In this document: positions 25,772 to 43,470 of the stretch, in pieces | How positions within the stretch are numbered: position 1 is the stretch's first letter | Layout of the letters: every line of letters begins with the position of its first letter | Source of the DNA: a virus | Taxonomy: Duplodnaviria > Caudoviricetes | DNA length: 53,744 nt | Reading direction: 5' to 3' (one strand) | Virus record (IMG/VR): IMGVR_UViG_3300025590_000010 | Location: 1-53,744 of that record | Program-made: the position numbers and the translations under genes | Notes under the pieces: generated by a model | What the model was told of the DNA's origin: nothing | The model's database searches: none | What the model saw: only the letters and a program-made list of their open reading frames with translations

Positions 25772-26836
25772 TTAGGCAGCGTTGTAACGTGCTGTGATAA
25801 GTGCCTCGGGGCGCAAGATTTTGCGTCCGTAAAGGTGCATACCACGTACAATGTCAGCAAAGCTGTCTGGGTCACGGTAGTTCTCAACTTTGTTGATCTG
25901 CTCAGCAGAAGCAACAGCATCGTCCTGACCAGCTACGATAACACCGTAGTTAGCGTCTTGTGCAGTTGTACCAGAAGTACCAGCACCAGTGCCTTTAGCA
26001 GGCAAAGCATTGGACACATAAACACGGAAGCCGTGAATGTTGTTCAACACCAGACCGTTTTGCAAGCCTGAGCCACCAAAGTCGCCATTCAACATACGTG
26101 AATCTTCGTCTTTGAGCATCTCTACGAACACGGGGTCAAGAACGACCCAACGTCCACGTGCATCTACATTTGCTGTGTCCATCTTACGAGCCATACGTGC
26201 AAGTACAGTCAAAGGGGATACAGTTGTAGCTGACAGGGCTGTTGCACCTGGCAAACGTGGAGCCAATGGTACGGAGTCACCTGCAGTCGCTGTACCAGCA
26301 ATAGTCAAGTTACCGAAGTCAGTTGCGTCTAGGTGATTAGCTGCAAGATATTCACCTTCTACTGCAGCATTGTCTAATGCTGTGCCGTGCTGTGCATCAC
26401 CACTAGAGGTAGCAATAAATGCACCTGCAGATGTGTGACCTGAGAGGTAAGACAATACGTCTGCATCCATTGCATCAGCCATCTTATATGCAGCACGATC
26501 AGCAGCCAAGCTGGTGAAGTCTACGTTTGCAAACTGCTCTTCAATGTCATCCATTTTGAAAGCAAAGTAGTTAGCTTTGTCAATGGTGAGCGAGAAGTCA
26601 GAGTCATCAAGCTTCTCTACTGAGATACCTGTGTGACGCTGCAGAGCGTTGACTGTTACGTCTGGCTCTTTTTGAATGCGAACTGTGTCGCCTTGGTTTG
26701 CAATCTCACCAAAGTAAGAGTTGTTAGTGATTGCGTTAGTTACAGCTGCACGGCGAAGTGCAATCTGTGCTTGTTTGGAGTAAATAATCGGGGAGAAGTT
26801 CCCGTCAAATCCACCACTAGCGGAAGTAATAGCCAT
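25772..26836 (-). CDS. Major capsid protein
   Basis: NFSPIIYSK, GEIANQGDTVRI, F.DIVRGMHLYG.KILRPEA; follows scaffold. Confidence 0.9.
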   Translation of the reverse strand: MAITSASGGFDGNFSPIIYSKQAQIALRRAAVTNAITNNSYFGEIANQGDTVRIQKEPDVTVNALQRHTGISVEKLDDSDFSLTIDKANYFAFKMDDIEEQFANVDFTSLAADRAAYKMADAMDADVLSYLSGHTSAGAFIATSSGDAQHGTALDNAAVEGEYLAANHLDATDFGNLTIAGTATAGDSVPLAPRLPGATALSATTVSPLTVLARMARKMDTANVDARGRWVVLDPVFVEMLKDEDSRMLNGDFGGSGLQNGLVLNNIHGFRVYVSNALPAKGTGAGTSGTTAQDANYGVIVAGQDDAVASAEQINKVENYRDPDSFADIVRGMHLYGRKILRPEALITARYNAA

Positions 26837-27042: not shown

Positions 27043-27072
27043 TAGTTTTATCTACTAATGAGAGTTTGTCAA
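27043..27072 (-). promoter_or_regulatory. Promoter for capsid gene, TTGACA-N16-TAAAACTA
   Basis: Minus strand -35 at 27072-27067, box at 27050-27043. Confidence 0.7.
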
Positions 27073-38326: not shown

Positions 38327-38598
38327 TTTACTTTATCAGCCCAGTACGCAGCAGAGAGCTTACCCTTCTTGATATTCTTAGCATGTCTAGCTTTGAAGGA
38401 TGCACGTTTCTTCTTCATGCGATCAGATTCACCTGCTTTAGGCTTACCTGCTGTGGACGCTCCCTGTTCACCGAAGCGGATGAGCTTAATGGTGTCACCT
38501 TCTTTGGCAAGGACAGCGTGGGACTTGGTAGGGTGCTTGGGAGTACGCTTGGGTTTGTTGTAACCTTCAAACTTCTCACCTCTATACTCAATCGCCAT
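38320..38598 (-). CDS. Small basic protein
   Basis: YNKPKRTP.HP.KS..VLAK...KLIRFG...R.SFKARH...SAAYWA.K.KW. Confidence 0.75.
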   Translation of the reverse strand: MAIEYRGEKFEGYNKPKRTPKHPTKSHAVLAKEGDTIKLIRFGEQGASTAGKPKAGESDRMKKKRASFKARHAKNIKKGKLSAAYWADKVKW

Positions 38599-38848
38599 AA
38601 GGTCTCTTCCTGTCAGGGTCTAACACATCACTACGAGATAACATGCCCTCTAAGTACATAGCCCTCTCTACGTGATCCAGAGAGTACCTAACCCCTGTGT
38701 CAGCCTCTATAGCTGCACGTGCATAGAACACGTCACTACGAGGGATATGAATACGGCGTATACGCTTGGCACTACCGTCAGCTAAAGCAGAGTAAAACTC
38801 TTCTAGTATGTTATCATCTGCATATAGTTGTACGGGTTTAACAGGCAT
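38588..38848 (-). CDS. Hypothetical protein, first gene of the left-pointing arm
   Basis: HIPRSDVFYARAAIEA motif; start probably ATG 38848. Confidence 0.6.
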   Translation of the reverse strand: MPVKPVQLYADDNILEEFYSALADGSAKRIRRIHIPRSDVFYARAAIEADTGVRYSLDHVERAMYLEGMLSRSDVLDPDRKRPYGD

Positions 38849-38854
38849 TGTCAA
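38825..38854 (-). promoter_or_regulatory. Promoter TTGACA-N16-TACAACTA
   Basis: Same architecture as 27043-27072, 39231-39260 and 50984-51013. Confidence 0.6.
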
Positions 38855-38867
38855 CACTTTTCTTAAT

Positions 38868-38992
38868 AAAAAAGGTACGTGTCGCAAACTACATGTTAGG
38901 AGAGAGGAGACATGAGGAGAGTATACACATATGTTTGTGACACGTACCAGGAATGTAACACTTATGTTTATACAAGTTTATGTGTGTTACAT
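38868..38992 (-). ncRNA. Putative small RNA with anti-Shine-Dalgarno loop
   Basis: Promoter upstream, 9-bp 5' stem, 16-bp terminal stem with three UCUCCU in the loop, U6 tail; no ORF. Confidence 0.6.
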
Positions 38993-38998
38993 ATGGAT

Positions 38999-39027
38999 AG
39001 TGTACAAACTATTAAGAAGGGTGTCAA
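38999..39027 (-). promoter_or_regulatory. Sigma70-type promoter TTGACA-N17-TACACT
   Basis: -35 at 39027-39022, -10 at 39004-38999; predicted start about 38992. Confidence 0.7.
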
Positions 39028-39030
39028 CCC

Positions 39031-39212
39031 TATAGTTAAACTATCTAAGTTAAACTTACTATTAATTATTACTTATATAAAGTTATAAGTGTATAGTTAA
39101 ACTCTGTAAGTTAAACTCTTCCTATGTCCAGTAACTTTATTAACACACTCTTTATATAGTTTAACTATTTATTATTTATTACTTGTATTAAGTTTAACTT
39201 AAATGTTTAACT
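39031..39212. repeat. AGTTAAACT iteron-like array in AT-rich DNA
   Basis: Forward at 39034, 39048, 39095, 39109; inverted at 39158, 39191, 39204 (last has 1 mismatch). Confidence 0.8.
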
Positions 39213-39260: not shown

Positions 39261-39579
39261 TCCCTAAAATACGCATACTCGTAAGAAAGTTTTACTAATG
39301 AGCGGATCTTTGCCTATGTGTTACATAAATGCACCACTTATATGCTTATGTGTTTGGAATGTGGCAACAATAAGGCAATCTAAAATACCCGTGCGTGTAG
39401 TTGTACATATATACGTAACCCCATACCCGCCCGTGGCCCTCGCACCCCCCCTCTTTTAGCATGGCATAGGGCGAATCGTGGTGGTTTGACTTGGTAAGTT
39501 ACTGTAAATGCTGTACTCTTTAACTGATGTGTCGTCAGACTATTCAAGAAAAGCGTGTGTTTTCAAGGAGTTTCAAAAG

Positions 39580-39646
39580 TGTGATCACAAATCAAAGAGG
39601 GATGCACAAAACACCAAACCACACCCCCTATTATGTGATCACAAAT
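39580..39646. promoter_or_regulatory. Two copies of palindrome TGTGATCACA(AAT), putative operators
   Basis: 13-bp identical copies at 39580 and 39634. Confidence 0.5.
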
Positions 39647-39886: not shown

Positions 39887-39981
39887 AGCCGCATAGAAGA
39901 GCCGCATAGAATACCAAGACCGAATAAAAGTAAGACCGAATAAAACGATTGACTAACTAAACCGAATATGCAGACTGAATA
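39887..39981 (+). repeat. Short direct repeats around an early promoter
   Basis: AGCCGCATAGAA x2 (39887, 39900); AAGACCGAATAAAA x2 (39916, 39932) plus two degenerate copies; TTGACT at 39949. Confidence 0.7.
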
Positions 39982-40200
39982 GCAACAGAAGTAACGGCAC
40001 ATAGACTAGCTTAAGGACAGCGTCCAAGATACGGGGCGGTAGTACGGTGACTTGAATCAGCCCGTCAAAGGTCTGAGCTAGTGTGTCTAACAGATATAGC
40101 TAGGATAGGCTTTCCAGGTTACCGCTTGGCTTGTGCCTATCTCATGGTGTATCTAACCAATCACCTTAACCAATTAAATCTAACACAAGGAATGACCCCC

Positions 40201-43248: not shown

Positions 43249-43470
43249 ATGACTAACACACAAAACTCTAAGATCATCACACACCTTCGTGCAACCAAGG
43301 GTCTGACCCAGCGTGAGGCTATGCTGGACTACAGCATCCAGTCATTCACTAAGCGTATCTCTGAGCTACGCAAGTCAGGCTACCGCATTGATGGCGTGAA
43401 GGGTAAGCACCCTGTGACAGGTCAGCAGTACACACGCTATGTTTTGATTGATGAAACTAGTGGAGCGTAA
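43249..43470 (+). CDS. Winged helix-turn-helix protein
   Basis: Q...I..HL....GLT.REA...Y.I.....RISELRKSGY.I; AGGAG RBS. Confidence 0.75.
   Translation: MTNTQNSKIITHLRATKGLTQREAMLDYSIQSFTKRISELRKSGYRIDGVKGKHPVTGQQYTRYVLIDETSGA

Follow-up and report, generated by a model that had tools for sequence, protein, structure and literature searches.

The genome of the IMG/VR virus record IMGVR_UViG_3300025590_000010 (Duplodnaviria; Caudoviricetes) carries two divergent gene modules, and a 1.2-kb stretch free of open reading frames (ORFs) lies between them. This raises the question of whether this stretch, at the head of the leftward strand, encodes a functional RNA, and if so, what the RNA does. The window analysed here is the entire record, 53,744 nucleotides (nt; 53.7 kb) in length and 98% complete. 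A preliminary description of the locus had proposed a self-contained phage small RNA (sRNA) of ~125 nt, which presents three motifs complementary to Shine-Dalgarno (SD) sequences and silences host mRNAs or the phage's own early genes. Sequence comparisons indicate that the RNA is real and is under selection for its structure and for an open pyrimidine loop. In our best reading, the element yields a short RNA in most lineages, and in every lineage it also serves as an mRNA leader. That the loop of this dual leader and sRNA pairs with SD-type sequences is the functional interpretation favoured here, and it is held tentatively. The two modules are termed rightward (replication) and leftward (packaging/structural), with their timing inferred from gene content.

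Sequence features and predicted fold

The promoter and the RNA consist of the following features, listed in the direction of transcription.

38999..39027, minus strand: P1, a sigma-70-type promoter motif (TTGACA at 39027-39022, a 17-nt spacer and TACACT at 39004-38999), with a predicted start near 38992
38953..38992, minus strand: hairpin 1, a 9-bp stem (7 pairs modelled) with an A-rich loop, at the extreme 5′ end of the RNA
38874..38948, minus strand: hairpin 2, an interrupted 21-bp stem carrying the loop at its tip; stem and U tract together make up a predicted intrinsic terminator
38897..38926, minus strand: the 30-nt apical loop of hairpin 2, 80% pyrimidine, with three UCUCCU copies and a conserved UGUCUCC core
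38868..38873, minus strand: the U6 tract of the terminator, following the hairpin 2 stem

In hairpin 1, AUGUAACAC (38992-38984) pairs with GUGUUACAU (38961-38953), and the stem begins 7 nt past the -10 hexamer. Hairpin 2 is formed by GGUACGUGUCACAAAC (38948-38933) and GUUUGCGACACGUACC (38889-38874), which pair with one mismatch; RNAfold lengthens this stem to 21 pairs. The three UCUCCU copies in the RNA are seen on the plus strand as AGGAGA at 38898, 38905 and 38915. The promoter, the 9-bp stem at the predicted start, the 16-bp stem with its single mismatch, the U6 tract and the three loop motifs are all found where the preliminary description had placed them.

The 125-nt sequence 38992-38868 folds with a minimum free energy of -36.3 kcal/mol. 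It is far more stable than 200 dinucleotide shuffles of the same sequence (mean -16.9, standard deviation 2.8, z -7.04), none of which fold as well. In the short RNA, bases of the apical loop are unpaired with an average probability of 0.93, and the value is the same for a 433-nt read-through RNA.

Conservation and covariation

Relatives of gene 1, the 86-amino acid (aa) gene that follows the RNA, were used to collect upstream sequences for comparison. At least 587 relatives were confirmed in IMG/VR among at least 599 candidates, and 80 loci were retained. Together with three isolates and the window these make 84 sources, or 75 non-redundant upstream sequences after removal of nine duplicates. 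A covariance model of the RNA, built from 23 sequences, has matches on the gene strand in 76 of the 84 sources at E <= 1.3e-5, and in 80 at E < 0.01. The four sources without a match are L002 (isolate CRP-13), L073, L079 and L083.

The stems covary. Among 47 distinct model-aligned sequences, 91.3% of the cells in paired columns are paired and 19 of the 28 pairs have changed on both sides. Not one of 500 shuffles reaches any of the five measures used, and slid controls give 4-9 pairs changed in this way. As the 47-sequence alignment is fitted to the structure, a plain MAFFT alignment of the 23 closest sequences served as an unfitted check; here pairing is 94% and seven pairs are double-changed, all of them in hairpin 2, again with no shuffle out of 500 doing as well. 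Of the 21 pairs of hairpin 2, 14 have changed on both sides in the larger set. Hairpin 1 is invariant among the 23 closest relatives, and in the larger set it has five of seven modelled pairs double-changed and 98.5% of cells paired. When RNAalifold was applied to a 41-sequence MAFFT alignment, only the nine basal pairs of hairpin 2 were recovered. The inner stems are misaligned there, and the covariance-model alignment was therefore used instead.

The paired columns contain 102 G.U pairs against 14 A.C pairs, and this excess fits an RNA read from the minus strand, not a DNA element or a transcript of the other strand. With the RNA present in 80 of 84 sources, the conservation of stems and CU-rich loop that the preliminary description depended on is borne out, as is the covariation of its stems. 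The RNA is present in the isolates CRP-207, CRP-603 and CRP-2. Copies in hosts or prophages were not found: across 185,579 species genomes of bacteria and archaea, a strict stem pattern has no match. With a looser one there are 55 matches in unrelated taxa, mostly Streptomyces, but all 55 are negative with the covariance model and are regarded as chance.

The apical loop

The loop is conserved in composition while the stems around it change. In 70 of the 75 non-redundant sequences it is 17-30 nt long and 79-100% pyrimidine, with 0-3 G residues. The loop is kept even in L052, L068, L073 and L075, whose stems share no sequence with those of the window. In L057, L059, L062 and L072, hairpin 1 also has a CU-rich loop. 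The five exceptions are CRP-13, which is without such an element, L064 and L070, where the RNA sits further upstream, and L079 and L083, which have a different hairpin whose loop, CCCUCCUU, is nonetheless CU-rich. A pyrimidine loop that resembles an anti-SD sequence is on this comparison the most persistent feature across the diverged relatives. In addition, the UGUCUCC core recurs among relatives with its G fixed, which suggests sequence-specific recognition and not mere pyrimidine richness.

The hairpin of L079 (506-660) and L083 (1400-1494) is G+C-rich and unrelated to hairpin 2, which it replaces. It is followed by a U5 tail and then by another CCCCUCCUU stretch. L079 also has a tandem duplication of ~90 nt that spans the U5 tail, the second promoter-type motif (P2, below) and the first codons of gene 1.

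Promoter P1 and upstream sites

P1 matches the consensus at 10 of 12 positions and is listed by a promoter scan. A generic scan of the 34-44 kb region finds 17 sigma-70-like sites, compared with 19.3 in shuffles, and because this is no excess, the support for P1 comes from its conservation and not from the scan. Conservation was assessed in 21 sequences, namely the window and 20 loci chosen by hand whose flanks are complete. All 21 have a -35/-10 pair whose end is 4-9 nt ahead of the match to the RNA model, and the -35 hexamer is TTGACA in 18. Immediately upstream lies an array of short sites.

39034..39212, both orientations: AGTTTAACT site array, the nearest pair of which abuts the P1 -35 hexamer

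Six exact AGTTTAACT copies are within 39034-39199, compared with two in the remainder of the 53.7 kb; repeat families D1-D4 cover the array. The pair adjoining the -35 hexamer is kept in relatives or replaced by related palindromes, e.g. AGAGTTATAACTCT and AGAGTAATACTCT. This suggests that the array consists of candidate operator or activator sites for a DNA-binding regulator of P1. A winged helix-turn-helix (HTH) gene at 43249-43470 is a candidate source of the binding protein.

The arm motif of hairpin 1 recurs as TATGTAACACA (minus strand) at 39317-39327, a third copy that is 334 nt upstream of the RNA, and in CRP-207 several copies of GTAACAC precede P1 (L001:1220-1330). Perhaps hairpin 1 doubles as a protein-binding site or operator at the DNA level.

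P2, gene 1 and predicted terminator read-through

The region directly downstream of the U6 tract has two overlapping features.

38827..38854, minus strand: P2, a second promoter-type motif (TTGACA, 16 nt, TACAAC), overlapping the gene 1 ATG
38588..38848, minus strand: gene 1, a conserved 86-aa protein without an SD sequence, its start codon inside P2; mean column identity 79%

The gene 1 protein has no match in Pfam or PHROG, and its AlphaFold2 model (mean predicted confidence, pLDDT, 55.7) is too poor for use. The spacing of P2 is fixed in 74 of the 75 non-redundant sequences, while the gene 1 start moves by 0, 3, 6 or 9 nt relative to TTGACA; the hexamer is thus not conserved as coding sequence. 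In all 51 further contigs found with the stem pattern, P2 is at most 80 nt downstream of the hairpin. The motif TTGAC[AT]-N16-TA[AC]AAC is expected by chance ~0.03 times per genome, yet the window has two copies, CRP-207 three, CRP-603 two and CRP-13 one. One copy in each of these isolates is P2 (in CRP-13, the copy upstream of gene 1). The second window copy (27045-27072, minus strand) is in a gap upstream of a 354-aa gene (25772-26836), and CRP-207 and CRP-603 have another copy upstream of a leftward ORF of similar size, a structural-block gene of ~355 aa. In CRP-1 and CRP-345, TAAAAC is the -10 hexamer at P1. P2 probably represents a real promoter type.

The gene 1 start lies between the -35 and -10 hexamers of P2, and gene 1 would therefore be translated only from P1 transcripts that read through hairpin 2. 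A leaderless start of gene 1 from P2 was considered, but the ATG in TATATGCA is in the wrong frame and lacks conservation, with TATACGCA present in many sequences, and this reading was rejected. Pairing of the 5′ arm of hairpin 1 with GUGUUGACA at P2 was also rejected, as hairpin 1 differs in L020/L022, L029 and L052 and P2 stays the same.

Termination at hairpin 2 is predicted from a 21-bp, G+C-containing stem followed by U6. A simple terminator scan did not list it because the loop exceeds the 8-nt limit of the scan. In 35 of 47 relatives there are at least five U residues in the 8 nt after the stem.

In L070 (670-1380) and L064 (~140-813 and 815-1486), the RNA and gene 1 are separated by inserted members of a ~230-aa family whose N-terminus reads MKLKLPFFNR..., and a paralogue follows gene 1 in L064 (1745-2449). 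In CRP-1, CRP-345 and HMO-2011 (L101, L102 and L103), a tandem P1...P2 arrangement without the CU-loop RNA is kept ~250 nt upstream of gene 1. The two motifs are ~200-240 nt apart, and the interval is filled by repeats of CACTTAAGTG-like motifs.

Comparison with known RNAs and regulatory systems

No Rfam family accounts for the RNA. Of 4227 models, including those of alphaproteobacterial sRNAs, riboswitches and leaders, none matches anywhere in the window at gathering thresholds. The single match of a permissive search (E <= 10, 38780-39100) is to a microRNA model, on the opposite strand; with E 5.1 and 14.9 bits where the gathering score is 100, it is attributed to chance.

The preliminary description had likened the RNA to the cuckoo/CcsR sRNAs. 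Cuckoo RNAs include CcsR1-4 (RSs0680a-d) of Rhodobacter sphaeroides and C14 and related sRNAs of Sinorhizobium. The family is defined by two to four hairpins, each with CCUCCUCCC, and its matcher allows hairpins of 24-50 nt and loops of 9-27 nt (PMC4615179). The likeness is one of design: both have an alphaproteobacterial setting and adjacent hairpins whose stems vary and covary, strong sequence conservation is confined to a C/U-rich loop of anti-SD type, and occlusion of ribosome-binding sites (RBSs) is the presumed mechanism of both. The two adjacent hairpins of the phage RNA are conserved with covariation. Membership, however, is not borne out. An exact CCUCCUCCC is upstream of gene 1 in none of the 75 sequences and within one mismatch in 18; in the window only hairpin 2 bears a CU-rich loop, and the hairpin 1 loop is A-rich. 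Hairpin 2, with 75 nt and a 30-nt loop, is beyond both size limits, the loops of relatives being 17-30 nt. The phage RNA also differs in being phage-encoded and in doubling as a terminator and mRNA leader. By analogy, it might work as a cuckoo-type RNA does without being a member of the family.

RNAIII of Staphylococcus aureus and other sRNAs with UCCC loops are also comparable in having multiple unpaired C-rich motifs that are thought to seed pairing with RBSs (PMC4615179). They are unrelated in sequence and in host phylum, and have one motif per small loop, whereas the phage RNA has three motifs in one large loop.

In bacteriophage lambda, the strong promoter PR' and the short, terminated 6S RNA ending at tR' lie directly upstream of the morphogenesis genes. 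The promoter and short RNA described here have the same position ahead of morphogenesis genes. Here, though, a second promoter motif, P2, follows the terminator, and no antiterminator was found among the 40 ORFs scanned with Pfam. We know of no selection on the loop sequence of lambda 6S RNA, in contrast to the loop described here. Leader-derived sRNAs that arise by premature termination include rnTrpL, from the trp attenuator of Sinorhizobium, and the riboswitch-derived SreA and SreB of Listeria. As with these, one unit would yield both a short terminated RNA and, on read-through, an mRNA leader; unlike these, the phage element shows no evident ligand-sensing or leader-peptide component and no Rfam riboswitch or leader match.

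To our knowledge, regulatory RNAs encoded by phages have very seldom been described outside enterobacterial and Vibrio systems. No regulatory RNA of HMO-2011-type phages was found in the literature searched, and the main text of the comparative paper on this group has no mention of intergenic, non-coding or RNA polymerase.

Ribosome-binding sites and predicted targets

Sense-strand AGGAGA is present 21 times in the 17.7-kb rightward module but only four times in the 34.5-kb leftward module, which makes it ten times denser in the former. Many of the rightward copies are at SD positions, and the leftward genes mostly have (T)AAGGA, as judged from crude gene calls. The isolates CRP-207, CRP-603 and CRP-13 show a similar division, with rightward genes having mostly AGGAGA(G) sites and leftward genes mostly (T)AAGGA, a skew of ~3-fold. 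Predicted duplexes between the loop and translation initiation regions are stronger for rightward genes in the window (p = 0.0017), in CRP-207 (p = 0.00057) and in CRP-603 (p = 0.0083). When 39 ortholog triples are averaged, the eight best are all rightward genes, with those for DnaB (47725) and DNA polymerase A (48955) leading. These predictions are compatible with the riboregulator envisaged in the preliminary description. They do not discriminate between explanations, and the targets named are leads only.

A proposed mechanism and its alternatives

The features described above can be assembled into a simple scheme. Host RNA polymerase would start at P1, near 38992, and make an RNA with two hairpins. 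Hairpin 2 and the U6 tract would stop most transcripts and free the ~125-nt RNA, and in transcripts that pass this presumably partial terminator the element would instead form the 5′ leader of gene 1. In both forms the 30-nt unpaired pyrimidine loop, with its UCUCCU and CCUC motifs and UGUCUCC core, would be held out on a long stem. It would most likely pair with purine-rich, AGGAGA-type ribosome-binding regions and occlude them. Among predicted partners, rightward genes of the phage itself rank best, the DnaB-like helicase and DNA polymerase A at the top, and host mRNAs may equally serve. Pairing with SD sequences is the most economical reading of the loop. A further step would be to see the RNA as a phage-encoded analogue of the host's cuckoo-type anti-SD sRNAs that acts as a translational switch. 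Abundant 125-nt RNA, made once P1 fires, would occlude AGGAGA-type RBSs and so shut down phage DnaB, DNA polymerase A and host mRNAs, and the morphogenesis genes, which mostly have AAGGA-type sites or none, would still be translated. This extended scheme is considered unlikely.

Several findings weigh against pairing of the loop with SD sequences by a free RNA. Related isolates do without the RNA: none was detected in the whole record of CRP-13, nor within 700 nt upstream of gene 1 in CRP-9, CRP-1, CRP-345, HMO-2011 and MW202701. For the most part, the preference for rightward genes reflects how the modules differ in SD strength generally. The same direction is seen with a generic anti-SD comparator (p = 0.011, 0.0033 and 0.11), and CRP-13 shows the same skew both with foreign loops (p = 0.04 and 0.005) and in AGGAGA counts. 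A division of early and late genes by SD type, taken as support for specific targeting, is weakened accordingly. As any CU-rich loop scores well against any SD sequence, the target ranks are not independent evidence. The U tract is reduced to three or fewer U residues in the 8 nt after the stem in 7 of 47 relatives, some of them with further CU-rich sequence past the stem. The start of a 236-aa gene, led by its own AAGGA, is ~10 nt past hairpin 2 in L070, and two such SD-led genes follow the hairpin in L064; there is no intervening promoter in either, which makes the element certainly part of a long mRNA in those lineages. The claim that the RNA is self-contained is thus upheld only in part: the window has a dedicated promoter and a good intrinsic terminator, but read-through is needed for gene 1, and in some relatives the U tract is reduced or the hairpin is followed at once by a gene.

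These last observations are also the case for a serious rival, judged somewhat unlikely, in which the element is cis-acting only. It would be the leader of gene 1, and of the inserted genes in some relatives; a leaky terminator would set the flow from P1 to gene 1 and insulate the genes served by P2, the 5′ hairpin would stabilise the mRNA, and the loop would bind a protein (ribosomal protein S1 at a standby site, Rho, a cold-shock-type protein or a phage factor) without pairing to mRNA. A gene 1 start that is inside P2 in 74 of 75 sequences, the lack of an SD sequence in gene 1, and a tandem P1...P2 layout that persists even where the RNA is missing all fit a leader of this kind. On the other side, gene 1 keeps TTGACAATG in L064 and L070 with the RNA 720-1366 nt away. 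Translation of gene 1 therefore needs no nearby loop, and a role of the loop as a gene 1-specific translational enhancer is unlikely. Rho would be expected to need a longer loading site than a 30-nt loop on a stable stem, the fixed G of the UGUCUCC core suggests recognition of a particular sequence, and the terminator-like tail is kept in 35 of 47 relatives. The comparison with lambda leads to another explanation, late-operon attenuation. Here transcription from a constitutive P1 would yield the short RNA only as a by-product, and timed passage would depend on a phage antiterminator, which could be a Q-like protein or, as with HK022 put, the RNA itself. Such a system would have what lies directly ahead of the packaging and structural strand: a consensus promoter, a short structured transcript and a strong terminator, together with two stem-loops immediately past the transcription start. 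But P2 lies between the terminator and the genes, so that the terminator does not gate them, and the P2 motif also precedes a structural-block gene in three genomes. Attenuation would also leave the conserved CU-rich loop without a role. No Q-like, N-like or sigma-like protein was found by Pfam in 40 of ~72 ORFs, which is a weak argument, as small phage regulators often escape Pfam. Overall, attenuation is quite improbable.

Least probable by far is an action at the DNA level or from the other strand, with the inverted repeats as operators or origin structures of the 1.2-kb region, or with a plus-strand ORF (38912-39088) whose ATG is preceded by AGGAG. Repeats abound in the region, the arm motif of hairpin 1 has its additional copy, CRP-207 has its upstream GTAACAC repeats, and the complement of the loop does resemble an SD sequence plus ATG. 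However, the many G.U pairs would be mismatches in DNA or on the other strand, and a strand-specific pyrimidine loop of 30 nt has no obvious role in DNA. The plus-strand ORF was rejected, since its ATG is lost in the close relatives L010, L015, L017 and L027, which have CCT or CTT for CAT. Taken against these alternatives, pairing of the loop with SD-type sequences, by the free RNA and the leader, remains the reading preferred here.

If the RNA acts on ribosome-binding sites, it would represent a simple, all-RNA mechanism by which a phage reprograms translation, and a case of a phage that uses the same solution as the cuckoo-type sRNAs of its host. The cultured carriers CRP-207, CRP-603 and CRP-2, whose respective hosts are FZCC0040, FZCC0012 and FZCC0023, together with close relatives on the same host that do without the RNA (CRP-13, CRP-9 and CRP-1), make the RNA directly testable. 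The P1/P2 layout and the TTGACA-N16-TAMAAC motif provide a first handle on transcription in this phage group. The RNA family is carried by abundant marine roseobacter phages, its neighbour gene 1 having the large number of IMG/VR relatives given above; HMO-2011-type phages are described as a dominant and widely distributed marine viral group (PMC9038755).

Genome setting and other repeats

The nearest isolates to the window are the HMO-2011-type roseophages CRP-207, CRP-13 and CRP-603, and the hosts of related isolates are Rhodobacteraceae. Minus-strand genes extend from 38848 to 4301 and include those for the large terminase and the portal. The dozen small ORFs directly after the RNA have no known function assigned. 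Plus-strand genes start at 40081 and include those for an integrase, the DnaB-like helicase and DNA polymerase A, as well as ThyX, endonuclease I, MazG and the winged-HTH protein, as assigned by Pfam. The Pfam scan took in 40 ORFs of ~72 crude gene calls; it revealed no RNA polymerase gene and no antiterminator or sigma factor, the winged-HTH protein being the only regulator-like product. Genes for tRNA or transfer-messenger RNA were not found in the window.

The non-coding region contains further repeats upstream of the rightward genes. Palindromic TGTGATCACAAAT is present twice, 54 nt apart (39580-39592 and 39634-39646), AGCCGCATAGAA is repeated twice in tandem at 39887-39912, and AAGACCGAATAAAA is found twice, 16 nt apart, at 39916-39945. 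All three may serve as origin iterons or as operators of the rightward genes.

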